Origin: a virus
Taxonomy: Duplodnaviria > Heunggongvirae > Uroviricota > Caudoviricetes
Reading direction: 5' to 3' (one strand)
Virus record (IMG/VR): IMGVR_UViG_2675903417_000002
Span: 1-36,620 of that record
Length of the DNA stretch: 36,620 bases
The translations under genes and the position numbers were made by a program. The notes beneath the pieces are model-generated. The model searched no databases and was not told the DNA's origin. It was given only the letters and a program-made list of their open reading frames with translations. Below are positions 1-27,045 of the stretch, one piece after another; the stretch's first letter is position 1, and each line of letters opens with the position of its first letter.

Positions 1-228
1 CAATTAAAACAGCAAGTTATCAGTCTAAACAGAACACCAACGGGATGGAGGAGAGACAAAAAATATCCAATGAAACCGTAGCGCGTCAGCATTCAAAAGC
101 GGGGTTTCTTATTTTTACTTCACCAGTAACAAATACACTGTATCATAACTACATAAAAATGATTGTTCTGACTCAGATGAATTTCTTACTCTTGTAGAAT
201 GTCACTTAATGTTATTTATAGGTAAACA

Positions 229-2118
229 ATGAAATCCGAAACGCTAACCATCCAGCAAATTTTCCAAAATCAACGACAATATCGTGTTCCATTCTATCAA
301 CGTGCCTACGTATGGACGCAACGAAACCAATGGTCAGCTTTGCTGGAGGATATCTTCGAAAAAGCACAGAGCCGACTTTCGGGAACAAAACCAACCCCTC
401 ATTTCCTCGGCGCGGTGGTGCTGGAACCTCAACTCAAAAACAGCTTGTTAGGTGTAGATACCATACATATTATTGACGGCCAGCAACGTTTAACCACTCT
501 TCAATATATTCTGGCATCCATTCGATTATCATTGCGTGCTACAGGCCTTTCTGAACTGGAAGGGTTAGTATTGACTTGCTTGAAAAATACAAACGAAGCA
601 ACGATGAGAAATAAAAAGGTAGAATGCTTCAAACTGTGGCCAACTTTTCGAGATCAAACTCATTTTATTCAAAGTCTTAATGTTGATAATATTGACGATC
701 TCCGTAATGTATTTTCTGATAGCTTCACGCAACATGGTACGTTACGTAAACATTTCAACCACCCGCCGTCACTAGAGGCATTATGGTTTTTTACTGAAGC
801 CTTTATAAAATGGATTAAAATAGAAAACCGCTCACCACAAGAAAATGCTGTAGCACTAATTGAGGCTGTCTTGACGGATCTGAAACTGGTAAGCATATTT
901 CTCGAAGCTGAAGATGATGCCCAAATAATTTTTGAAACATTAAATGGGCGAGGAGCGGAACTTCATGCAACGGATCTTATTCGCAACTATATCTTTATGT
1001 GCGCTGAGCATGAAAATATTAATACTATTGAATTATATGAAAATGAGTGGAAGATCTTTGAAGATAAATACTGGTCGGAAAAGCAACGCCGTGGACGTAT
1101 TAATAAACCACGCATGGAGTGGCTTGTACATGCGACATTGCAATCAGAAAGGCAGCGTGAAATTGATCTGTCTCGCCTTTACAATGAGTATCGTGATTAT
1201 GTAAGTAAGGACTTGCCTTCACAACGAGCAGATCTGCAAGTAAAGCGCCTCAAACAATATGCATCACAATATAAAGAATTGGTTGGTGGTTTTGGCACAA
1301 CCCCCATCTCACACTTTGGACATCGCATCGCAGCCTATGATGTGACGACACTCTATCCGCTTGCTTTGTTCATTTCGATAGCTAACATCGCCGATGATGA
1401 GAAAGCAGCCATGTATAATGATCTTGTCTCCTACGTAGTACGAAGAGCCGTATGTGGCCTGACGCCAAAGAATTACAACAATGTATTTATGAATGTATTG
1501 CGACACTTGTCTAAAACGGAAATTTCCAGTATTGAGTTACGTAATATCCTCAATAGCTTAAATGGCGAAGCCTCACGTTGGCCTGGGGACTCAGAATTTC
1601 TCAACGCTTGCATCAATGCTCCACTTTATCCTGGCAGGCTCGACGCACCGAAAATGCGCTCAATGTTAACGGAACTTGAAAGAGAACTTTGTCGCCAAGT
1701 GAAGACAGAAAAGCCTGATGTTCCAAATCTTTCTAATCTCGATATCGATCATCTTATGCCTCAAAGTTGGTATTCCTGTTGGCCTCTCGAAAATGGTCAT
1801 ATGGTGACAAATTCAGATGCTACGGTAATGAACCAAATTGTTCTGTCTGGAACCGATCTTACCCCTGAACAGCTACTGGTAAGGAAACGGCAACAAGCGA
1901 TAGCTACGTTGGGAAATCTAACTTTGCTTAACCTTAGCGTAAACCGTTCCGTTCAGAATGCTGTATTTCTGAAAAAACGTGATGCTCTCATCGTCCACAC
2001 CAATCTACGACTGAACATACCACTTATACTTAAGGATAAATGGGATGAGAGTGAAATACTGGAGCGAGGTAAAAAGTTGGGGGAAATTGCATTGAAAGTA
2101 TGGCCAAAATACGATTAA
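229..2118 (+). CDS. GmrSD-family (DUF262 + DUF1524) type IV restriction endonuclease-like defence protein
   Basis: 629-aa ORF; N-terminal DUF262 motifs (VPFYQRAYVW, IIDGQQRLTTL at nt 475-489) and C-terminal DUF1524 His-Me finger-like motif (DIDHLMPQSW at nt 1741-1770); AGGT RBS before ATG 229; AT-rich relative to the phage structural genes. Confidence 0.7.
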   Translation: MKSETLTIQQIFQNQRQYRVPFYQRAYVWTQRNQWSALLEDIFEKAQSRLSGTKPTPHFLGAVVLEPQLKNSLLGVDTIHIIDGQQRLTTLQYILASIRLSLRATGLSELEGLVLTCLKNTNEATMRNKKVECFKLWPTFRDQTHFIQSLNVDNIDDLRNVFSDSFTQHGTLRKHFNHPPSLEALWFFTEAFIKWIKIENRSPQENAVALIEAVLTDLKLVSIFLEAEDDAQIIFETLNGRGAELHATDLIRNYIFMCAEHENINTIELYENEWKIFEDKYWSEKQRRGRINKPRMEWLVHATLQSERQREIDLSRLYNEYRDYVSKDLPSQRADLQVKRLKQYASQYKELVGGFGTTPISHFGHRIAAYDVTTLYPLALFISIANIADDEKAAMYNDLVSYVVRRAVCGLTPKNYNNVFMNVLRHLSKTEISSIELRNILNSLNGEASRWPGDSEFLNACINAPLYPGRLDAPKMRSMLTELERELCRQVKTEKPDVPNLSNLDIDHLMPQSWYSCWPLENGHMVTNSDATVMNQIVLSGTDLTPEQLLVRKRQQAIATLGNLTLLNLSVNRSVQNAVFLKKRDALIVHTNLRLNIPLILKDKWDESEILERGKKLGEIALKVWPKYD

Positions 2119-2140
2119 TGCAATTAATAAAATGATTATA

Positions 2141-2164
2141 GCGGCCTTACATTAGTAAGGCCGC
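2141..2164. terminator. Stem-loop (9-bp stem gcggcctta/taaggccgc, 6-nt loop) between the convergent defence gene and invertase remnant
   Basis: Perfect inverted repeat read directly; A/T-rich flank on the minus-strand side; no clean T-tract on the plus side. Confidence 0.45.
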
Positions 2165-2343
2165 TACTCACTATTAAATCCTTTAATTTGCATCAAGAAC
2201 AGCACTGTCAGCCCTAGGCTCTCGGACTTTGTACCGCTTATCTTGTCTTCAAAAATCAGCTCGCATCCTGCACAGTTCAACGCATTACGTTGTAGATCTG
2301 TGTTCTGGTCATTTATTGATACGCGTACATAGCCAATAAGCAT
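2164..2343 (-). pseudogene. pin: Degenerate remnant of a Gin/Pin/Hin-family serine DNA invertase (N-terminal ~42 aa conserved, then divergence and stop)
   Basis: Translation MLIGYVRVSINDQNTDLQRNALNCAGCELIFEDKISGT matches the invertase N-terminus including the catalytic Ser region, but the ORF stops after 59 codons where ~185-190 aa is expected; ATG at 2341-2343. Confidence 0.7.
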
Positions 2344-2397
2344 AGTGGATCCCTCTGACAAAAGCAGGAATGATGCCATTTGCTCGTTATTTCTGCA

Positions 2398-2423
2398 TTT
2401 TCATAAACGTTGGTTTGGGAGAA
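2398..2423. other. Left hix/gix-like 26-bp recombination site of the invertible tail-fibre segment
   Basis: Reverse complement reads TTCTCCCAAACC-AA-CGTTTATGAAAA; shares a 16-bp identical core with the site at 4234-4259 in inverted orientation; AAACC-NN-GGTTT-type core as in hix/gix sites. Confidence 0.65.
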
Positions 2424-2948
2424 GGCTCTGCATTACCTGTTGGTGTCCCTGTTCCGTGGCCTTCAGCCACTCCGCCAACAGGCTGGCTGAAATGCAACGG
2501 AGCAGCTTTTTCTGCTGAAGAATACCCGGAACTGGCAAAGGCTTACCCGACAAATAAATTGCCAGATTTACGTGGTGAGTTTATTCGTGGCTGGGATGAC
2601 GGGCGTGGTGTGGATGCGGGACGTGCCTTGCTAAGTCTTCAGGATGACTCTTTTGAAGCGCACAGGCATGAGTCCTTTTTTTACGCGGGTATTTCTCGCA
2701 ATGAAATACCATTAAAAAATCTTCCAAGTTCAGACGAGATGCTGACTTTAAGTTCTACAACTAATGCCTTGTCCCCGGACGGTATTGATGCCACTAATTC
2801 GTTAATTGGTAATGATGATTACAACTGTCTGATTGAAGGAAATAAAAATAACAAACGAACAGCGACGGGGTTGAGCACCAGTATTGTCGGTGCAGCAGAG
2901 ACCCGTCCACGTAATATTTCATTTAATTACATTGTGAGGGCTGCATGA
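2411..2948 (+). CDS. Alternative (currently unfused) tail-fibre C-terminal variable segment
   Basis: ORF 2370..2948 carries the GLGEG crossover-encoded peptide then a tail-fibre/collar-like C-terminus; sits inside the invertible segment in opposite orientation to the expressed fibre gene. Confidence 0.55.
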
Positions 2949-3550
2949 TGTATAACGCCATCTTAAATAATAAATTTATTGCCACAAAGGCAGGAGAGAT
3001 TACCGTTTATAACTATGACAGTGAGACACGGGAGTATATTTCTGCATCAACTGAATATCTTGCTGTGGGTGTCGGTATCCCTGCATATTCCTGTTTAGAT
3101 GCTCCTGACACACATAAGGTTGGTTATGCAATCTGCCGTTCGGCAGATTTAAACTCATGGGAATATGTGCCAGACCATCGCGGTGAAGTTGTCTATAACA
3201 CCGAAACGGGAGAATCAAAAGAAATCACAGCTCCGGGTGATTACCCTGAAAATACAACCACTATCGTCCCGTTAACGCCATACGATAAATGGGATGGTGA
3301 GAAATGGGTGACAGATACTGAGGCACAGCATAGTGCCGCAGTAGACGCGGCAGAAGCACAGCGCCAGTCGCTGATTGATGCTGCAATGGCTTCCATCAGT
3401 CTGATTCAACTGAAATTACAGGCCGGGCGGAAGCTGACGCAGGCAGAAACAACCCGATTTAACGCCGTGCTGGATTACATTGACGCGGTGACGGTAACAG
3501 ATACCAGCACCACGCCGGATGTCATCTGGCCTGAACTGCCGGAGGCGTAG
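2945..3550 (+). CDS. Tail fibre assembly protein (partner of the alternative fibre C-terminus)
   Basis: 201-aa ORF starting [25 protein letters not shown], typical Tfa N-terminus; overlaps preceding ORF by 4 nt. Confidence 0.7.
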
Positions 3551-3950
3551 GCCATTCAATATCGGGTGCTGTTGAAGTATCAACACGCATCAGCAGCACA
3601 CGGTATTTCTTCCATTCGGTGAGAGTTGAAGTTTCTTCATCAGTTGCGATATCAGCATCAACAGCATCCTGACGCCAGGATATTTCACTGTCAGCTTTTT
3701 CCCGTAATTGGGATTTTTTAACTTCAGCAATAGCTATTAATTCCTTTTTGGTCGGCTGAGGAATATCTATCAGTGCTGGTTTTCCATTCAGTGTTCCAAT
3801 CTGTTTTCCTGGTGGAATATCCGTAAATAACTTTTTATGTTCTTCCTCACTGACTATTACACCATCATCAGGCCACAGACCTGATGCCTCAAATTTTTCT
3901 TTCTCCGATATGGGGAAAAAGCCATTTGCTTTAGCGCTCCATACGTACAT
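3522..3950 (-). CDS. Tail fibre assembly protein (partner of the expressed fibre)
   Basis: 142-aa ORF directly downstream of the expressed tail-fibre gene; Tfa-like sequence; convergent with the other Tfa as in Mu G / e14 P segments. Confidence 0.7.
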
Positions 3951-3951
3951 A

Positions 3952-4536
3952 TCAATACCCCACCGCTATAATGTCCACATTAAATCCCCCGGGACCTGCC
4001 TGCCAGATGCTGGCCCCTGTTAATGATTTTGTTTGATGAACAACCGCCACATTTGCTGGCGATTGTGTTTCAGTTGTTACAGTACCGATATCATTCCAGT
4101 TAATTGAGATGGAATAGTTCGTTGTTGTAAACGACCGGGGGAAAGTTATGTGTCTTACATTGGTGCCGACAGGAAATCCAAGATAAACACGCTGAATTAT
4201 CATTCCTCCAGGTAACATAACCCAGTTAGCACCTTCTCCCAAACCAAGGTTTTCGAGAGCTGTTTTCACCGTGCCATCCGATTTGATATCGCCAAACGGA
4301 TTCTTGCGGCTTAACAGCAGCGCACGAAGCGCGGTAAGCAGCTGGTCATGCCGCCCCTTCTCCAGGCTGGCACCGGATGCCTCCACAACGCTGCAAAGCT
4401 CCTCCTGCAACATGTCAAAGTAGTCATCATCCAGATCGGTGGCAGGCGTGCCGGTCTGGGGGTTACCACGGGTAAAACCGTTCTTACCCGCGCCGAACTT
4501 ATCCTTCTGCGCGGTTTTCGTGTCTATACGATGCAT
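3952..4536 (-). CDS. Short side tail fibre protein (constant N-terminus fused to the current variable C-terminus)
   Basis: 194-aa ORF; crossover site falls at the NLGLGEG codons; follows the baseplate genes. Confidence 0.7.
4234..4259. other. Right hix/gix-like 26-bp recombination site inside the expressed tail-fibre gene
   Basis: TTCTCCCAAACC-AA-GGTTTTCGAGAG on the plus strand; inverted copy of the site at 2398-2423. Confidence 0.65.
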
Positions 4537-4539
4537 GGA

Positions 4540-5124
4540 TTACTCCGGATATTTAAAAATCACATAGGTATGCGACGGGCAGAGTTTGTTAAGAACACAC
4601 TCGACAACGGTGTCCCCCCAGAAGCGCAGCGCGGAATCACAGGGATCGCCACATGTCATCCAAGTGGTGTTGGTGGTGGCTGGCATGTTGACCTGCCAGT
4701 AATACCGCCATTCAGGCGCGTTCACAGCGTCAGTACAGGCCGATGAGCAGGTGAACGTGCTTTTGTCGTATCGCGTGATGGTAGCGTCTGGTCTGCCCAG
4801 GGCAGCAAGCTGTGCAAGGTAAAAATCCTCGTTGATGCCGCCCGCCAGGTTAACCTTCGCATCCAGCCGTTGCTGACGCTGGCGAAGGGTCTGTGTCCCT
4901 GCGGGAATACATTCATCCGGCAGACCGCACAGACGCTCCCAGCGGTTTATCAGTTCAGTGGTGGTGCGCGGATCCAGCTCCCGCATCAGGGCATCCGCAC
5001 GCTGATGAACGCGGGTTAATGACGGTGCCGCACCGGCAATCGACGGATCGCTGGCTGACCACGCCGGACCGGGGGGCAACAGTGCCGACAACAGACGGAT
5101 GTAATCATCGTTTGTCACGTCCAT
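4540..5124 (-). CDS. Mu gp48-like (DUF2313) tail/baseplate protein
   Basis: 194-aa ORF placed between the baseplate J-like gene and the tail fibre, as in Mu-like and e14-like tails. Confidence 0.6.
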
Positions 5125-6173
5125 GAAATCGTCCCCAGTACCGCCAGTTCATTTTTTGCAATGGAGATATTGTCTGCCGGTGTAAGCAACTGATGGCTGT
5201 ATTCCCCGTTCGCACCGGAAATCGCCTCACTGATACGCGATACCTTCAGTTCTCCCTGCGGATAACCATCACGCAGCAGGAACGAACGCAACTCCGCGGT
5301 GATGGCAGCCCGTATTTCCGGTGTGTCCGGCGTCACGCGGATATGAAAATCCACCGTATGTGCCACCGGCCTGAACACATACAAATCAGAGCCTGCCACC
5401 GGGGCCAGTGGCCCGATATGTTGTCTTGCCGCCGTTTCCGTTGATTCTTCCGGAATGGGATTAATCAGGTCACTGCTGGCAATCATCACACCGACAGTTC
5501 CCGTTCCCATCCAGTGACGGTATGTCCATGCGCGGGTAATGCCGGGCACTTCTTTAGCCCAGACGACATAGTCCCCGTCAGCCCCGCCCTGCGGCGTCCA
5601 GTAATACCGCTCAATGACGCGGGCGCGCCACGTTTCCAGATCTTCAGTATCGAATCCGCCAGTCAGAGTATCTGCAACACCGGAAGACGGCAGACCATTC
5701 ACCGGCGTGACCAGGATTAATGCCGTACCGTCGTCAGCGTTACCGACCGCGCCTGCACTTGAGCAAGTGATCGGCACGCGCAGGACACCACCGGAGCTGG
5801 TTGCATCAGCAGTTGCCGTGTACTGAACCAGGTCATCGCGCTGAATCACGCTCCCGGCAGTCACCTTCAGGCCATCGCTGACACCTTCCCAGCGCATATA
5901 CCCGCTGGCAGCCGTGGCCCCCTTGCGCGGACACCGTTTCATCGCAGCATGTCGCGCCAGCCAGGACTCATCGCACAGGTCAGGCAGCATGTTCATTGCC
6001 AGATAATCGATGTAACCGTAAACCGTATGCAGCGCCGCCGCATACACCTTTGCCCGCACGTCTTCATCCATGCGCCGGAGCGTGTCGCTGACGTCCAGCC
6101 TGGCGAATAAATCGTTACGGAGCATACTGATATTTTCTGCCAGCGTCGGGCGCTGAAATTCACTGTCCGCCAT
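5115..6173 (-). CDS. Baseplate J-like protein (Mu gp47-like)
   Basis: 352-aa ORF; size and position typical of baseplate wedge J family. Confidence 0.65.
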
Positions 6174-6588
6174 GCGTTATCGCACTCCACAGATCATCAA
6201 AAGAAATCATTACCGGTCCGTCACGACGCCAGAGAGTGATACTGTTACCCAGTTCATTAATCCCGGTGCGGCGGATATCCAGATCAATACGGGACACCAC
6301 GCCATCATCAATCATCCATTGCAGGCATTCGCGGATATACCCCCTTACCGTCTGCACCAGCTGATTGGTCAGTTTGCTGCGCTGAAGCAGCCACAGTCGG
6401 GAGCCGTAACGGTCATTCTGTACCGCAGGCCAGGTATCCCCCCACCATCCCATCGGGACGTCGGCGTTGTCATCAGGCTCCGCCCGCCGCCAGGTAAACA
6501 GGGAAATCACCACGGCGCGGGTCAGCGGATCCAGCGGTGCGCTGGCGCAGGTGCGTTTACCGTTCACCGTCAGCCACAGTTCCATCAT
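6160..6588 (-). CDS. Mu gp46-like baseplate protein
   Basis: 142-aa ORF, overlapping neighbours, conserved position in the Mu-like baseplate module. Confidence 0.5.
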   Translation of the reverse strand: MMELWLTVNGKRTCASAPLDPLTRAVVISLFTWRRAEPDDNADVPMGWWGDTWPAVQNDRYGSRLWLLQRSKLTNQLVQTVRGYIRECLQWMIDDGVVSRIDLDIRRTGINELGNSITLWRRDGPVMISFDDLWSAITHGGQ

Positions 6589-7133
6589 GCCTCCATCGCT
6601 TTATCCGGTTTGTCGGTGTTACTGCCCTGACCGTTCTCTCTGTGACTATGCCCGTTATAGGCAAGCCGCATCGCTGACATGGTGGTGCCGCCGGAGTCGC
6701 ACAGGTCTTTCACCTGTCCTGTCACTTCCAGGTCCATTTCAAAACGTGCTTCAGGTGCATTGCGAAACGTGATCGTTTTACCTGCACCGTCCACCACGAT
6801 CCCCTCCCGGGTCAGCGTCACGGACTGCCCCTGATCGTCATAGACAGCCACCTCACCCGTCTGCAGCCCTTTCAGGCGGTAGCGACGGTCCGACACCGTA
6901 ACAACCACCGCATGAGAACGGTCGCCATCCGGAAACAACACCACCGCTTCCGCACCGCTGTTTGCCCTTGCGGTAAAACCGTAGGGTTCAAGATGTTCAA
7001 CCCCGGCTTTGGGTTCACCGGCAATCAGGAACACATCCACGGTCTGACATTTCGTGGCGGCACTGATGCTTTTCACCACGGCCCGCCCAATCAGGCCGAG
7101 GAGTTGTCGCTGCATGGCTTCAATCGTCCTCAT
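6585..7133 (-). CDS. Baseplate assembly protein V / spike (Mu gp45-like)
   Basis: 182-aa ORF, position and size consistent with gpV-like spike. Confidence 0.55.
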   Translation of the reverse strand: MRTIEAMQRQLLGLIGRAVVKSISAATKCQTVDVFLIAGEPKAGVEHLEPYGFTARANSGAEAVVLFPDGDRSHAVVVTVSDRRYRLKGLQTGEVAVYDDQGQSVTLTREGIVVDGAGKTITFRNAPEARFEMDLEVTGQVKDLCDSGGTTMSAMRLAYNGHSHRENGQGSNTDKPDKAMEA

Positions 7134-8212
7134 CAGAACGGGTCCTCCTGTACTCTGGCTTTTTTCTTTTTCCGCGCGCCGGGGGCTTCGGGTTCAGGCA
7201 GATAAGCATCAGGCGGGCCGACACGGATTTCCGTCAGGGTGCCGTTCTGGTCCTGAGTAAACGTGACTTCCGAAACAAGCAGTTCGGTATTGTCGAAACC
7301 ACAGACCGGATCAAAGACAATCACCCGCTGGTTGGGCTGCCACAGCGTACCGTTACCCTGTCGCCAGCCCTGCACCACATAGGTGGTTTCATCCGTCCGC
7401 GCCGCCCGTTGTCGGGCTTCAAAGTCCGCACGGGCAATACAGCCTGCCCCCGTAGCCTGCCCTGTCTGCCTGATATACATCGGACGGTAACGGGCAATAA
7501 ATGCGTCCTCTGTGCGGGCCCGCAGCGCGGTGGTGGTGGCCTCACCGAAATCATCGTCGTTTCCGGCACGCTGCCCCGCCACCTGGTAAACAGAAAACCG
7601 CTCCCGGATACTCTTCTCCGTATCGCAGGAAAGGATGTTTTCCCCGAGTACCAGCGCAGTATGTGCCCGCGTTGAGCCAATACCACCAATCACCAGCCTG
7701 CCGTGCGGGTCGTCGTAAGCCAGTGCCTGCTGCTGACCGAGTATTTTGTTGATTACCTCAATCACCGTTTCACCGTGATCGGGCTGGACGTCAGGAATAA
7801 CACCCGACGGCGCACCGTTGTTCACCCCCTCAATGCCGAAAGGCGCAGCAAGCGCCTGCGCAATCTGTACCAGCGATCGTCCGTTAAACTGTGTCGGTTC
7901 GGCTGCACAGTCAATCAGGTCAGCAGTCAGACTACGTCCGGCAATACCGGTGCTGACCGAACGGGCATCGTAACGAACGGGGGTCGCCTCCACCCAGCCG
8001 GTGATCACCAGCTCATCACCAATCAGCACTTCCACTTTTGAACCATTTTTAATGCGCGGCTGAAGCGTGGTGATACCCTCATCTCCCGGCCACTGGCGGG
8101 TGATCTCCACGCTGAAATCCCGCGCCAGCCGTTCAATACCGGCACCGATGCGCACCGATGTCCAGCCATTCCACTCCCGGCCATTTACCCGTAGCGTGAC
8201 ATTGTCGTTCAT
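7133..8212 (-). CDS. Mu P-like (gp44) baseplate hub / tail protein
   Basis: 359-aa ORF between the DNA circulation protein and gpV-like gene. Confidence 0.55.
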   Translation of the reverse strand: MNDNVTLRVNGREWNGWTSVRIGAGIERLARDFSVEITRQWPGDEGITTLQPRIKNGSKVEVLIGDELVITGWVEATPVRYDARSVSTGIAGRSLTADLIDCAAEPTQFNGRSLVQIAQALAAPFGIEGVNNGAPSGVIPDVQPDHGETVIEVINKILGQQQALAYDDPHGRLVIGGIGSTRAHTALVLGENILSCDTEKSIRERFSVYQVAGQRAGNDDDFGEATTTALRARTEDAFIARYRPMYIRQTGQATGAGCIARADFEARQRAARTDETTYVVQGWRQGNGTLWQPNQRVIVFDPVCGFDNTELLVSEVTFTQDQNGTLTEIRVGPPDAYLPEPEAPGARKKKKARVQEDPF

Positions 8213-22483: not shown

Positions 22484-22537
22484 TAATCTTTCCCCTTAAT
22501 TTATTACTATGAAGCAGACCACAGAGATCGTAATAAA

Positions 22538-22557
22538 AAAACCGCCCGAAGGCGGTT
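22538..22557. terminator. Bidirectional rho-independent terminator after the lysis cassette
   Basis: Stem ccgcc/ggcgg extended by A/T pairs, loop cgaa, flanked by A7 upstream and TTT downstream. Confidence 0.6.
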
Positions 22558-22575
22558 TAAAGTACGGTTCGCATT

Positions 22576-22773
22576 TTATCCTTTTAAAGCGAGCTGAATT
22601 GCATCGGCCAGCTTTCCAATGCGCTCAGTTGCCTGATCTAAATCGCTATGCATTACTCCATTACCTGAGCTTGCTGATGCCTTAGCTATCTCAAGTGCAG
22701 CCTGAACTGCAAGTAAACGCTGTGTTTTTTCATCAGTACTAGCCATACCATTTTTAAAATAGTTCTCTAACAT
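22576..22773 (-). CDS. Small AT-rich helical protein of unknown function (65 aa)
   Basis: ORF 22576..22812 trimmed to the Met preceded by AAGGGA RBS; followed by the strong terminator. Confidence 0.4.
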   Translation of the reverse strand: MLENYFKNGMASTDEKTQRLLAVQAALEIAKASASSGNGVMHSDLDQATERIGKLADAIQLALKG

Positions 22774-22864
22774 AATAATTCCCTTTCTTACCCTGCCGAT
22801 ATAGCAGGTCACGAAAAGTTAATGGGGATTATATTGCAGTTTTCAAGGTTATGTTCACAGCCCC

Positions 22865-23416
22865 TCAGGGAGAGGGGCTTCTGTGATACTGTTGCCGTTC
22901 CCGTTCTATCTGGCGTATTCCTGCGAGCTGATTATTCGCCCTGTCAATAGCTGTCAGTAGAGGTTCAATCCACAGCACGGCCTGGCAGTATGTCAACGCG
23001 CCGGTGGTAAAGGAGTCATTATCGGCTGAGTAAGGGTGCCCGGGATCGGAATGTATGGCGCCGGAACGTAAACTGTTCGCATATTCGAGCACCCCGTTAG
23101 CGATATCAGCAGGAACAGGAAAATCGCAATTTTTTTCACGATGGAGAATCTCCCTGTATTTAATAACCGTTTTTTCACCACTGTCACTAAGTAATGAGTT
23201 CAGACTTCCAGTATATTCTGCTACCTGATTAAAGCGGCTAAAGTTGAATGCCTGTTCAGCTATCACTTTCCCTTGATATTCTGCTTCACCTACGGCTTTA
23301 TCCGCACGTAACTTTTCTATCTGATATTTACTGTAGTAATGGTTTGCTGACCAGACGAGTCCACCAAAGATAGAAATGAAGAATGCAGCGATAACCAGCT
23401 TATAACTCAACTTCAT
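22865..23416 (-). CDS. Rz-like i-spanin
   Basis: 183-aa ORF with N-terminal TM (LVIAAFFISIFGGLVW), overlaps endolysin 3' end. Confidence 0.7.
   Translation of the reverse strand: MKLSYKLVIAAFFISIFGGLVWSANHYYSKYQIEKLRADKAVGEAEYQGKVIAEQAFNFSRFNQVAEYTGSLNSLLSDSGEKTVIKYREILHREKNCDFPVPADIANGVLEYANSLRSGAIHSDPGHPYSADNDSFTTGALTYCQAVLWIEPLLTAIDRANNQLAGIRQIERERQQYHRSPSP
22993..23187 (-). CDS. Rz1-like o-spanin lipoprotein embedded in Rz in another frame
   Basis: Lipobox LISLTGC and Pro-rich C-terminus; entirely inside the Rz ORF; GTG start codons at track start and at codon 17. Confidence 0.6.
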   Translation of the reverse strand: MTVVKKRLLNTGRFSIVKKIAIFLFLLISLTGCSNMRTVYVPAPYIPIPGTLTQPIMTPLPPAR

Positions 23417-23876
23417 TTACCACCCCGCCAGCCTCTTTAAATCGGGCAATCAGGTCACCGATTTTATGTTCATACTGACCGTAACCTGCACCGGGTAATG
23501 ACGCCCAGATATTGCTGCAACGAGCGATAGCCTGACGAATATCGCCGCAATCAATCATCGGTAAAGCACCACGCTCTTTAATCTGCTGCAGCGCTACAGC
23601 GTCCTGGCTTTCTGGAGAAAAATCTTTCAGGCCAAGCTGTTTACGGTAAGTATCCCACCAGCGTGAAAGAAGCTGGTAACGTCCAGCGGCTGTTGATTTG
23701 AGTTTGAGGTTTAGCGTGACAAGTTTGCGAGGGTGATCGGAGTAATCAGCGAACAGTTCGCCACCAACAATAACGTCATAACCGTGGTTACGTGTCGGTT
23801 GTCGCCCGTTATCCGTTCCTTCTGACCATGCCACCATATCAAGGAAAGCTTTACGCTGGGGATTTAGCACCTGCAT
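23400..23876 (-). CDS. R: Endolysin, lambda R-type lytic transglycosylase
   Basis: 158-aa translation is near-identical to lambda R as recalled (NPQRKAFLDM.AWSEGTDNGRQ.TRNHGYDVIVGGELF.DYSDHPRKLVTLN). Confidence 0.9.
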   Translation of the reverse strand: MQVLNPQRKAFLDMVAWSEGTDNGRQPTRNHGYDVIVGGELFADYSDHPRKLVTLNLKLKSTAAGRYQLLSRWWDTYRKQLGLKDFSPESQDAVALQQIKERGALPMIDCGDIRQAIARCSNIWASLPGAGYGQYEHKIGDLIARFKEAGGVVNEVEL

Positions 23877-23879
23877 AAA

Positions 23880-24206
23880 TTACTCCTTAGAACCACCAAA
23901 CTTATTACCGATTACTCTCATTGCAGCCCCACGAATAGCATCGACACCGATCAGCCCCACCCCACCACCAATGGCAACAGAAAGTGATTTAGGCCATCCG
24001 ACATACTCAAGAGCGGATGCAAAAGTCAGTGTCAGAGCGCCACAGAGCAAAATCTCGAGCGTTTTTCGCTTCCAGCCACCACCACCGCCAAAATAGGCAA
24101 TGCGCAAGCCAGCCATAACGATCGACATAATTACTGCGCCCAGCGGCGTGTCTCCACGCCACCAGCTCTGGACCAACTCCAGCCAGGTATTTGGGTTATG
24201 AGGCAT
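23880..24206 (-). CDS. Holin (lambda S-like class)
   Basis: Track ORF 23880..24263 trimmed to internal Met (MPHNPN...) because a terminator hairpin lies inside the longer version; TM segments and charged C-terminus. Confidence 0.65.
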   Translation of the reverse strand: MPHNPNTWLELVQSWWRGDTPLGAVIMSIVMAGLRIAYFGGGGGWKRKTLEILLCGALTLTFASALEYVGWPKSLSVAIGGGVGLIGVDAIRGAAMRVIGNKFGGSKE

Positions 24207-24252
24207 TTCGTCATCTCTCACCTCGCGATATTTGCGGGTACTGTGAAATAAA

Positions 24253-24278
24253 AAAGCCGCCAATTATTTGGCGGCTTT
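24253..24278 (-). terminator. Rho-independent terminator following the Q-to-holin moron
   Basis: 9-bp stem aaagccgcc/ggcggcttt, 8-nt loop, T-run on the minus strand. Confidence 0.55.
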
Positions 24279-24295
24279 CAATAAAAAAGAAAATG

Positions 24296-25081
24296 TTATC
24301 GGGGAAGGTGTTGCTTTGGTCCTTCCCAACTGAAGGAATTAAAAACTTTTTGGATTAAATTTTGCAACTTTGCCAAAGACTCTGTCGAAATATCTACTTC
24401 ACCATAATAGCCATCAGCCATAGTGCACCCAAATTTAGTTCCGAATAAGTTATTCAACATCAATGCCCCCTGAGGTGCAACAACATGAATATTATTTACA
24501 GGTTTGAGTTTTATTGGCTTTGGTTCTTTCTCTGCACCAAGCCCACGAACTCTGTCTTCCATGTGTTGAGCTGAATTCCTTACCTTTCTTAAATCCGGAA
24601 AGTCTTTAGAAAGCTGTTCATGCAATTTTTTAATGTTCTCTGGCGCGCCATTTTCTTTTGAAATTACCTTTAAAAATTTATCAATAGCATCCAAAGCGTA
24701 GAGAAATGATTTTGCATGTAAGAAGATCAATCTGTGTTGATGAGCCAACGGATATTCACCGTTATTCCATTTTTCTCTTTTTAGACGTAGCTCGACCTCT
24801 GAAAAAACCTGTTCTGAATATTCATAAGGTTGATAACCAAACTCTTTACGAACCAGCATTTCCAGTGCTTGTCGTTTCTGTACATCAGCTTGCCATGTCT
24901 GAGAAATATTATCGAATTTACTGTTATTCTTAGTTCTTTCCTGTTCGAATAAATTTAATGCTACATTAGCATCATAAAATGCAGTTTCTAAATGGGATAA
25001 TAAGTTATTAAACGTCCATTCTAACTCTCTGTTTTCAAACTTAAGATTACTGCCTGGCTTGATTAACTCAAAAACATACAT
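24296..25081 (-). CDS. AT-rich moron protein of unknown function; candidate HEPN-like (Rx4H) toxin or defence protein
   Basis: 261-aa ORF in the Q-to-holin slot; low GC versus neighbours; motif RNSAQH fits Rx4-6H; ATG 25079-25081 with AGGGG RBS; own terminator. Confidence 0.6.
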   Translation of the reverse strand: MYVFELIKPGSNLKFENRELEWTFNNLLSHLETAFYDANVALNLFEQERTKNNSKFDNISQTWQADVQKRQALEMLVRKEFGYQPYEYSEQVFSEVELRLKREKWNNGEYPLAHQHRLIFLHAKSFLYALDAIDKFLKVISKENGAPENIKKLHEQLSKDFPDLRKVRNSAQHMEDRVRGLGAEKEPKPIKLKPVNNIHVVAPQGALMLNNLFGTKFGCTMADGYYGEVDISTESLAKLQNLIQKVFNSFSWEGPKQHLPR

Positions 25082-25155
25082 TTTTTCGACCCCTAGTTGT
25101 ATGGTCGAATAATTATATTACTAATTAATACCGTCATTCTGTTTTTACACAATAA

Positions 25156-25176
25156 AAAACCCGCTCAATGGCGAGT
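25156..25176 (-). terminator. Possible tR'-like weak terminator downstream of the late promoter
   Basis: 5-bp stem with one G-U pair followed by T6 on the minus strand. Confidence 0.3.
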
Positions 25177-25223
25177 TCTTGAAGGTTATCAACAGCAGAT
25201 ACATAAAGCCCATCGTTGAGGAA

Positions 25224-25252
25224 ATCTTATCCAGATTTTTTGAAAAATGCAA
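25224..25252 (-). promoter_or_regulatory. Candidate late promoter PR' (TTGCAT - 17 bp - TAAGAT)
   Basis: Hexamers read on the minus strand just downstream of the Q gene stop. Confidence 0.45.
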
Positions 25253-25283
25253 GTATCATGTCGCCATCTTCGTCGAAAATCAT

Positions 25284-26036
25284 TTATCTTGTCACCTTTC
25301 TCAATTGTGTCTCTGCATATGCTTCTTCCTGCCAGCACTTTGTAACCAGTTTATCAATGACATCTGCATATCCTTTGTACCACTGATAATCCGTCAGGTC
25401 TGGTACCAGCTTCTGGACATGATTCCGCGCCAGTGTGGTTGGTAAACGGCTAAATCGGTTTCCATTGCAACGCCCACAAATCTTATAAACAGGCGTGCCA
25501 TGAAGCCGGGTCCTTTTTTCATCCAGGACAATACCTTTACCCTTACACCCTCTGCACGCTGTGCTGACTTCTCCCTTACCATGACAATGCTGACATAGTT
25601 CCTTCACCCACTCTTCCTTGATAACAGATTCCCCGCTTCTGGAGTGTTTCACCACCTCGCGCAATACATTATGAAATCCAGTACCAGCACAATGCTCACA
25701 GCGAGCCTTACTTGCCGCAGACCTGGAATAATCAGCAAAGGCAAAATTCACAAGGTAAGGGATGATCTGTAACCGGATTTCTTCACTCAATTTGTTCAAT
25801 GTCGGGTTATCCAGTGCCATCGCGTAATTGAGCAGACCTTCAATCGCAAACTGAGGATCCTGAACACCAACTTTTGCCAGGAATAAGGCAAACCCAAGCG
25901 GTGCTTTCGACTGCACCATCCCCTGCGCAGCCATCACATCTGTAATTGTTAAACCACCCGAGCCTGTCGCCGGTGCGTCATCACTCAATTTTGGAGATTT
26001 TGGGGAGTAATATTTTGGTAAAGCTTCAAGGTTCAT
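25284..26036 (-). CDS. Late-gene antitermination protein Q
   Basis: 250-aa ORF with Cys-rich zinc-binding region (CEHCAGTG...CQHCHGKG...CRGCKGKG), positioned just upstream of the lysis genes. Confidence 0.75.
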   Translation of the reverse strand: MNLEALPKYYSPKSPKLSDDAPATGSGGLTITDVMAAQGMVQSKAPLGFALFLAKVGVQDPQFAIEGLLNYAMALDNPTLNKLSEEIRLQIIPYLVNFAFADYSRSAASKARCEHCAGTGFHNVLREVVKHSRSGESVIKEEWVKELCQHCHGKGEVSTACRGCKGKGIVLDEKRTRLHGTPVYKICGRCNGNRFSRLPTTLARNHVQKLVPDLTDYQWYKGYADVIDKLVTKCWQEEAYAETQLRKVTR

Positions 26037-26049
26037 GCTCGTTCTCCAC

Positions 26050-27045
26050 TTACGCCAGTACGCCTATTGCCAGCGCACGATCGATAAAACGAAATATCAG
26101 CTCCAGCTGGGAGCCATACTTCTCTTCAAATGCCACGGTATCCGCATGCAGCTCGTCGTGATGCTTTCTGCACAAAGGCAACACAAAGAGGTCATGCGCT
26201 TTTGTACCCATCCCACCCTGACCGTGGCCTATCAGGTGGTGGGGATCATCAGCAGGCTTTCCACAACATGCACACGGCTGTGTCTTAACCCAGCGCGTGT
26301 ACTTTTCATTAACCCAGCGGCGACGTTTTGGGCGTAACATAAAAGACTCCGGCGACTCCGGATCCACTTTCAGCGCCAGCACCTTTTTCGCCTTATCCTG
26401 GATGATGCTGGTGGCAGGAACCGAAGGCACAAGGTCACTTTCCCGGGTGACAGACGGCACAACAGGCTTCGGTAATCTCAGTGCCTTACGGGCTGCACTT
26501 TCCGGTAAGGCATCCGCCAGGTCATTACGAATCAGCCACCAGCACAGTTCCGGCATTGTCACAACGTGACTGTCATCAAAACCGAGATCCCGACGCACAA
26601 CAGACAACACCCAGCGGGCACAGTTATCCGTTGCCATTGATTCCAGCCGTTCCGTGAACTGATCGCGCAGCTGGTTATCGCAGTGCCAGCACAGACGGAT
26701 CGCGCCCGGCGCGTGTCGCATTGTGGTCATGTTCTCGCTGTGCCAGTCGGAATGAGGCCACTGACAGCCCTTTTCACGAAGTAACCAGCTTTCAAGACAT
26801 TCCACGCCACCAGCACGACGGATCACTGCCTCATTGCAGAACACGGCTCGAACGGCAGGATCATCCGCCAGCGGTTGTGATGCCGCGGGAACGGCACCAC
26901 TGGCGAAAGATGAATAACGTTCCGGCTCAGGCTCCAGCAGGACACGCCCCTGCATAAACAGGGGCATCAGCTCTGAACCGGGTCTGAACAATACGATCCC
27001 CATACGCGGGGCTATTTCAGGGGTCAGTAGTGCTCTCACGGTCAC
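26050..27045 (-). CDS. DUF968 / YdfU-like protein
   Basis: 331-aa ORF with C-terminal Cys/His cluster (CACCGKPADDPHHLIGHGQGG...CRKHHDELH); resemblance to Qin prophage YdfU is from memory. Confidence 0.55.
   Translation of the reverse strand: MTVRALLTPEIAPRMGIVLFRPGSELMPLFMQGRVLLEPEPERYSSFASGAVPAASQPLADDPAVRAVFCNEAVIRRAGGVECLESWLLREKGCQWPHSDWHSENMTTMRHAPGAIRLCWHCDNQLRDQFTERLESMATDNCARWVLSVVRRDLGFDDSHVVTMPELCWWLIRNDLADALPESAARKALRLPKPVVPSVTRESDLVPSVPATSIIQDKAKKVLALKVDPESPESFMLRPKRRRWVNEKYTRWVKTQPCACCGKPADDPHHLIGHGQGGMGTKAHDLFVLPLCRKHHDELHADTVAFEEKYGSQLELIFRFIDRALAIGVLA

Follow-up and report, generated by a model that had tools for sequence, protein, structure and literature searches.

The stretch of DNA analysed here (IMG/VR virus record IMGVR_UViG_2675903417_000002, 36,620 nucleotides (nt), hereafter the window) carries a tail fibre segment flanked by two inverted recombination sites. 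On one side of the segment lies the remnant of a pin-type serine invertase gene, which meets a convergent gene of the GmrSD family of type IV restriction enzymes, and on the other side lies the constant part of the fibre gene. By its sites and gene order, the segment is the P segment of the Escherichia coli e14 prophage itself. An initial annotation of this DNA had described the fibre as probably frozen in its current orientation unless a Pin or Gin homologue acts in trans. The anatomy that it proposed proved sound, but the window's own allele has been sequenced in both orientations, each time with the dead invertase beside it, and it is the caveat about trans action, rather than the lock, that the flipped alleles with the same truncation favour.

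Crossover sites, fibre cassettes and the invertase stub

The features of the segment and of the stub are as follows (positions are those of the window; lengths in base pairs (bp) or amino acids (aa)).

2222..2343, − strand: remnant of the pin invertase gene, first 41 of 184 codons, with its ATG at 2343; 156 of 167 positions identical to K-12 pinE by blastn, the match ending at 2222
2259..2322, − strand: putative Fis-dependent enhancer-equivalent block, 64 bp, inside the stub, assigned by homology from an alignment with K-12 pinE and Mu gin
2398..2423, + strand: left crossover site, on the pin side, centre between 2410 and 2411; 26 of 26 positions identical to the K-12 e14 site beside pinE
2426..2948, + strand: silent alternative fibre C-terminus of the phage tail collar type (Pfam Collar, E 1.7e-15; 57% identity to K-12 StfE)
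2945..3550, + strand: TfaE-like tail fibre assembly gene of the collar cassette (Pfam Caudo_TAP, E 8.7e-30; 88.5% identity to K-12 TfaE)
3522..3950, − strand: tail fibre assembly gene of the Gp53-like cassette (Pfam Caudo_TAP, E 1e-33; 33% identity to K-12 TfaP)
3952..4231, − strand: fibre C-terminus now in the expressed position, Gp53-like (Pfam Gp53-like_C, residues 108–194 of the 194-aa fibre)
3952..4536, − strand: the whole expressed fibre gene, 194 aa, from the open reading frame (ORF) list
4234..4259, − strand: right crossover site, within the fibre gene, centre between 4246 and 4247; 26 of 26 positions identical to the K-12 e14 site in stfP
4247..4536, − strand: constant fibre N-terminus, codons 1–97, outside the segment, from the ORF list (97% identity to the K-12 StfP N-terminus over 105 aa)

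The initial annotation had seen two inverted 26-bp sites that share a 16-bp core with AAACC-NN-GGTTT architecture. The perfect core, TTGGTTTGGGAGAAGG, has only two copies in the 36.6-kilobase (kb) window, at 2410–2425 on the + strand and at 4232–4247 on the − strand, where chance would give 0.03 matches on average; none of 100 dinucleotide shuffles held two or more copies. A repeat finder run on the window returned inverted-repeat arms at 2405–2425 and 4232–4252 (21 nt, 95% complementary, 1806 nt between them). Read from outside to inside, the left site is TTTTCATAAACG-TT-GGTTTGGGAGAA on the + strand and the right site (4259–4234) is CTCTCGAAAACC-TT-GGTTTGGGAGAA on the − strand. The two agree at 21 of 26 positions and share the central dinucleotide TT, so that an inverted 26-bp pair with an AAACC-NN-GGTTT-type core and a common central dinucleotide, as in the Din family, is present. 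Compared with Mu gix, 17 of 26 positions agree by hand count, with the same AAACC-NN-GGTTT core. The inverted site pair is real and lies far above chance.

The two cassettes, each with its own assembly (chaperone) gene, are in opposite orientations inside the segment, the assembly genes converge and the constant N-terminus lies outside, so the two alternative C-termini and two convergent assembly genes of the initial annotation are borne out by Pfam (Collar, Gp53-like_C and two Caudo_TAP matches). The collar cassette is at present part of a 192-aa ORF (2370–2948) with an StfE-type leader peptide. Inverting 2411–4246 in silico (1,836 bp between the site centres) leaves both frames open. The 194-aa Gp53-like fibre is replaced by a 275-aa collar-type fibre, fused in frame to the constant part, and the StfE-leader ORF beside the stub, open in both orientations, goes from 192 to 111 aa. 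On the − strand, the fibre gene is preceded by ymfQ, of the Mu gp48 family, and by the gene for baseplate J. A sigma-70 consensus scan of 2050–4700 gave no promoter-like site, either for the fibre operon or for the stub-proximal ORF, and an NCBIfam scan of six ORFs gave no informative match. A public clustering at 90% identity groups the 194-aa fibre with 413-aa phage portal proteins (6,130 members), which looks like a clustering artefact.

The homology of the stub to pinE (93%) ends at 2222, and the open frame continues through unrelated sequence to a stop at 2164–2166. Pfam aligned the stub with positions 2–53 of the 145 of Resolvase only, and the HTH_7 DNA-binding domain was absent from the scan, whereas the intact gene of relatives encodes 184 aa with Resolvase and HTH_7. 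In related genomes, PGAP labels the equivalent stub an incomplete recombinase missing its C-terminus. The segment lacks an intact adjacent invertase of the usual Din-family size (about 184–193 aa), and the truncated one is dead, as first annotated. That the stub is a frameshifted but recoverable gene was ruled out: between 2222 and the GmrSD stop at 2118 there are only ~100 nt, made up of unrelated sequence and a terminator-like hairpin.

The surviving part of pin includes a candidate enhancer. DNA invertases of this family require an enhancer in cis. That of Hin measures 65 bp, has Fis sites at both ends and lies some 100 bp from hixL (PMC3798978); for Gin, a stimulating site within the invertase gene is indicated by the title of Kahmann et al. 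(1985), which PMC3798978 cites. We placed the equivalent block by alignment with pinE and gin and by the size and distance given in PMC3798978, rather than from a published pin or gin footprint. In the three-way alignment, pinE and gin show strong DNA-level conservation over their first ~40 codons. A 15-mer scan found two conserved G-N13-C 15-mers at the same positions in the window, K-12 pinE and Mu gin, namely 2308–2322 (95.5 bp from the left-site centre) and 2259–2273 (144.5 bp). At the sequence level, the 5' end of the invertase gene thus contains two 15-mers, in a block that lies ~100 bp away from one site. Because both (2259–2322) lie within the remaining pinE homology, which runs 36 bp beyond the block, the truncation spared the enhancer-equivalent DNA; the role of Fis here is putative.

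Compared with K-12, the block contains two substitutions, one of which, from C to T, is in the middle of the proximal 15-mer. This change (window 2315) falls in stub codon 10 on the − strand, giving Ile instead of the K-12 Thr after the catalytic serine (VSINDQ vs VSTNDQ); in a stub it would matter only for the DNA element, if at all. Since Fis sites have an A/T-rich centre (PMC4784862), we expect it to be tolerated.

Both orientations beside the same truncation

The GmrSD-pin' truncation junction (query, window 1800–2400, at least 80% coverage) was found in 299 of 5,426 complete E. coli genomes (about 5.5%), with both orientations among them. Junction-spanning queries, which required both the truncated flank and the first 250 nt of one cassette, retrieved 67 genomes with a collar-type cassette beside the stub, as in the window, and 12 with the window's Gp53-like cassette there, the flipped state.

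Three pairs of alleles differ by the inversion, and one of them places the exchange at the site centre. The first involves the window itself. The predicted 275-aa flipped fibre exists as an exact sequence on public contigs (protein index, draft assemblies), and in the GenBank E. coli assembly GCA_017779465.1 (L016) it lies beside a 59-aa Resolvase stub and a 629-aa GmrSD gene. This locus equals window 1–6754 base for base, except for a precise inversion of the segment; the residual differences, at 2409 and 4248 only, are the markers of the asymmetric outer half-sites. Among RefSeq complete E. coli genomes, the flipped fibre gene of the window had no 100% match (best 97.2%). In the second pair, E. 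coli MEI148-20EC and LST200A, the mismatch lists against window 1–4935 are the same and the GmrSD and chaperone proteins identical, and the segments point in opposite directions.

The third pair, EC_J_9 and B1S11, carries a related prophage beside tRNA-Pro/yejM; between the two strains, a precise inversion of the segment lies within flanks of 100% identity (5,104 + 2,738 nt). Of two markers, a single-nucleotide polymorphism (SNP) in one inner half-site (GGTTTTGG) goes with the segment and the outer AAACG/AAACC difference remains in the flanks, so the exchange is confined to the 7 bp TTGGTTT, central dinucleotide included. Serine invertases cut at the central dinucleotide.

With three otherwise identical pairs and both orientations on record, the segment is not locked at the species scale. 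The lock proposed at first is unsupported across strains, and the orientation of any strain, including the source strain of the window, is a snapshot and not a permanent state.

The EC_J_9 and B1S11 loci (L009 and L010, locus 2000–7200) hold the GmrSD-pin'-P-segment module with the same junction at tRNA-Pro/yejM and not at icd, the integration site in MEI148-20EC, so this module has passed between phages that integrate at different places. In the comparison with MEI148-20EC and LST200A, 27 SNPs fall in the silent collar cassette (2429–2906) and 30 in the constant fibre part plus ymfQ (4261–4935), against two in the left 2.4 kb and none in the rest of the segment. This clustering looks like patchwise recombination of receptor-binding parts.

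The neighbouring restriction gene and the prophage

Two features lie beyond the stub.

229..2118, + strand: GmrSD-family type IV restriction gene, 629 aa (Pfam GmrSD_N, E 2.1e-33, and GmrSD_C, E 3.8e-19; PADLOC mREase_IV end to end, 1514.8 bits)
2138..2167, − strand: terminator-like hairpin between the GmrSD stop and the end of the stub ORF, a pattern match from a consensus scan (13-pair stem, 7 GC pairs)

The protein combines an N-terminal DUF262 (GmrSD_N) and a C-terminal DUF1524/HNH-type (GmrSD_C) domain in a single polypeptide, as in the GmrSD family; its activity is predicted. Convergent with the stub, the gene occupies the site held in K-12 e14 by the rest of pinE and then mcrA, where the order is pinE-mcrA-icdC. 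Given these K-12 genes at the same position, one replacement event both put the GmrSD gene in place of mcrA and removed pin past codon 41, the 3' three-quarters of the gene. That the truncation accompanied the replacement of mcrA by a GmrSD-type gene, like the enhancer-equivalent block retained in the stub, goes beyond the initial annotation. The GmrSD gene stands exactly in place of mcrA, also a type IV restriction gene, but in the opposite orientation. Other relatives (L011, L012, L017) have a gene for a LEM-3 GIY-YIG nuclease at the same position, after an intact invertase. The prophage end beside pin looks like an exchange point for defence genes, with McrA and GmrSD as the case for type IV restriction.

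In E. coli MEI148-20EC, a ~40-kb prophage at icd is colinear with the window (97–99% identity) and has its head, contractile tail, lysis, regulatory and int/xis genes all present. The gene content of this ~40-kb prophage includes no further invertase gene. Chromosomal neighbours in colinear relatives (an icd fragment, iraM and ymgK/L) are those of K-12. The window belongs to an e14-family prophage with a Mu-like tail and lambdoid early genes, which looks full length and most likely sits at icd. The only large non-colinear stretch relative to MEI148-20EC is window 22485–26053 (3.6 kb), in the late regulatory and lysis region. There, MEI148-20EC has a cassette of 'anti-phage protein', hypothetical and MBL-fold genes between the holin gene and Q, and the window has a different Q-type antiterminator (25284–26036) and a 261-aa ORF (24296–25081) without a Pfam or PADLOC match.

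A shortened relative also carries the allele. In GCA_016681175.1 (L013, locus 4200–6000), an e14-like deletion derivative runs from the repressor (Peptidase_S24) through a 74-aa C-terminal fragment of baseplate J, ymfQ and the fibre segment, here flipped, to the stub of the invertase and the GmrSD gene. The truncated allele is therefore found in a cryptic remnant with the build of K-12 e14 as well. In the phage collection there was no close full-length match to the segment, the best coverage being 43%.

Proposed trans inversion, competing explanations and known systems

We interpret the locus as a P-type invertible fibre segment of an e14-family prophage whose own invertase is dead and which is inverted in trans by foreign serine invertases, and give this reading a probability of about 0.8. 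The constant N-terminus is joined at the right crossover site to either of two receptor-binding cassettes, and inversion of the 1,836 bp would exchange a fibre with a Gp53-like tip (194 aa) for one with a collar tip (275 aa). The GmrSD replacement removed pin past codon 41 and left both sites and the 64-bp block in place, and because these survived, the DNA would stay a competent substrate. Given a dead invertase and a surviving substrate, catalysis would then come from small serine invertases of other resident prophages or plasmids (Pin/Gin/Cin- or PinQ/PinR-type), probably assisted by host Fis. The anatomy, the truncation, the retained enhancer sequence and the precise inversions between otherwise identical truncated alleles are direct observations; we infer the identity of the trans enzyme, the dependence on Fis and the rate of switching in the source strain.

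Candidate enzymes appear to be common. To count them, chimeric queries were used in which an invertase gene was attached to a single-copy stretch of the GmrSD gene as marker, and extra matching places were counted, some of which may be fragments or pseudogenes. With pinQ, each of the eight genomes nearest in the junction (99.8% or more) gave at least one further chromosomal match, and with the 3' part of pinE, which the stub has lost, six of the eight did. All eight therefore appear to carry another small serine recombinase gene. The query joining the marker to the pinE 3' part was matched by 4,788 of the 5,426 complete genomes. Cross-action of such enzymes is documented by experiment (PMC12529663). 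PinQ and PinR act in trans on the P segment of e14, at the 16-bp repeat described above, which is the reported PinQ target. The H segment of Salmonella is inverted both by PinE and by Fin of Fels-2, and PinE inverts Mu G as well. The P segment was found inverted in 33% of 562 genomes (PMC12529663).

Several points weigh against trans inversion. A K-12 pinE deletion has been reported as locked despite chromosomal pinQ and pinR (PMC12529663). The extra pinQ and pinE places are counts, and some may be fragments or pseudogenes. The source genome was read over 36.6 kb, and any compatible invertase of the strain would lie beyond that scope. The enhancer was assigned by homology and spacing, and one of its two substitutions sits at the centre of the proximal 15-mer. 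Strain comparison proves that inversions occurred and gives no rate; orientation tends to follow the sub-lineage of the truncated allele, and switching may be infrequent. As for the K-12 knockout, deleting the whole gene also takes the enhancer, which the natural truncation does not, and we suggest that the loss of the enhancer explains the lock there.

The first alternative is that the segment is truly locked in the source strain, which would lack a compatible or sufficiently expressed invertase, so that its fibre is fixed as the 194-aa Gp53-like form and the flips seen elsewhere needed helper enzymes. The dead invertase, the locked K-12 mutant, the two of the eight closest genomes without a chromosomal pinE-type 3' match and the partial agreement of orientation with sub-lineage are all in keeping with it. 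It is nevertheless unlikely, as the exact allele of the window exists flipped with the same stub (L016), a pinQ/R-like match occurs in all eight closest genomes, most E. coli genomes contain Pin-family sequences, and the sites and enhancer block are intact.

A second alternative concerns what the locus is for. The stub-proximal ORF, composed of the StfE-type leader MMPFARYFCIFINVGLGEG and a cassette, might make a surface fibre fragment that blocks the adsorption of other phages, with host defence as its main present role. The leader is conserved with K-12 StfE, the ORF is open both ways (192 and 111 aa), the neighbouring GmrSD gene is itself a defence gene, and StfE2 of K-12 e14 is reported to block adsorption after PinQ-driven inversion (PMC12529663). 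Unlike K-12 e14, however, the prophage seems complete in its genes for head, tail, lysis and regulation, and the fibre switch therefore has an obvious virion use; the cassettes are only 56–57% identical to the K-12 ones, and the consensus scan of 2050–4700 revealed no promoter-like site. A defensive role would be compatible with trans inversion, but as the main one we consider it less probable still than a lock.

The least tenable alternative is homologous exchange, in which a flipped segment was imported from a pin-proficient relative by recombination at two places, the ~180-bp stub/site region and the constant fibre/ymfQ region, or the truncated left module was imported into a flipped prophage: the family is mosaic, with SNPs clustered in 2429–2906 and 4261–4935 and almost none elsewhere, and the GmrSD-pin' module occurs at two integration sites, but each case would demand a sequence-identical donor and a crossover in a very short interval, and with three independent pairs identical over the segment and kilobases of flank, inversion aside, and an EC_J_9/B1S11 exchange within 7 bp around the central dinucleotide, which is serine-invertase-like and far too short for a RecA-type event, it is unparsimonious and very improbable.

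The P segment, its crossover sites, cross-complementation among Din enzymes and inversion in trans by PinQ and PinR are all established, so no new mechanism follows from this locus, and a specialist would not be surprised by it. Our literature search on this truncated allele found no paper. What it adds is a natural and widespread genotype in which the cognate invertase is gone, substrate and enhancer block are kept and the segment is still demonstrably inverted. It is useful as a caution for annotation, since prophage annotation and host-range prediction should not take a pseudogenised invertase as a sign that the fibre or the host range is fixed, and as a natural test bed, because in its clean background the resident recombinases that act on the P segment when natively expressed could be identified. 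A broader scenario is tentative, and we would put it slightly below even odds. An apparently complete, probably inducible e14-family myovirus prophage may have given up its invertase but retained both sites and the putative Fis enhancer block, leaving the switching of its fibre tips wholly dependent on invertases of co-resident prophages or plasmids (PinQ/PinR- or Pin/Gin/Cin-type) and the host range of its released virions set by other elements of the lysogen, while GmrSD-pin'-P-segment would spread as a module among phages that integrate at icd and at tRNA-Pro/yejM.

Among known systems, the K-12 e14 P segment is the nearest. Both 26-bp sites are identical, the order ymfQ-stfP-tfaP-tfaE-stfE-pinE (constant N-terminus, two cassettes with convergent tfa genes, then pin) is shared, identity reaches 97% between the constant part and StfP and 88.5% between the TfaE-like protein and TfaE, and colinear relatives have the same chromosomal neighbourhood. 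In contrast, pin of the window is reduced to 41 of 184 codons, a convergent GmrSD-type gene replaces mcrA, identity falls to 56–57% for the cassettes against StfP and StfE and to 33% for one chaperone against TfaP, and the prophage appears full length (~40 kb), while that of K-12 is a 15-kb remnant. The Mu G segment has the same plan, with a constant part outside, Sv-U and U'-Sv' inside, and an invertase beside one site that is transcribed away from it; 17 of 26 site positions with the AAACC-NN-GGTTT core, ~40 invertase codons and the two 15-mers (95.5 and 144.5 bp) are conserved. Mu gix differs in its central dinucleotide, TC instead of TT, and Mu has much longer fibres and a working invertase of its own. 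The P1 C segment with Cin is analogous to the Mu G segment.

The Salmonella Hin/hix/Fis system offers the model for the enhancer, a 64–65-bp element in the 5' end of the invertase gene, ~100 bp from a site, with a Fis-type 15-mer at each end (PMC3798978), although in the window only the DNA remains, without a gene product. The StfE-leader ORF, open in both orientations, may recall the phage inhibition by PinQ and StfE2 (Kirigo et al. 2025). Compared with a self-contained Din system, the window has the sites, the enhancer sequence, the cassette architecture and both orientations, but not the intact adjacent invertase. By sites, gene order and chromosomal position, the segment is the e14 P-inversion system itself, in what appears to be an orphan, trans-dependent state. 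As in the known cases of trans inversion (PinQ/PinR on e14, Fin on H, PinE on Mu G), segment and enzyme would reside on different prophages; in those cases the cognate invertase is also present, whereas genome comparison suggests that the segment of the window depends wholly on foreign enzymes. The closest functional parallel is the documented inversion of e14 in trans by PinQ and PinR.

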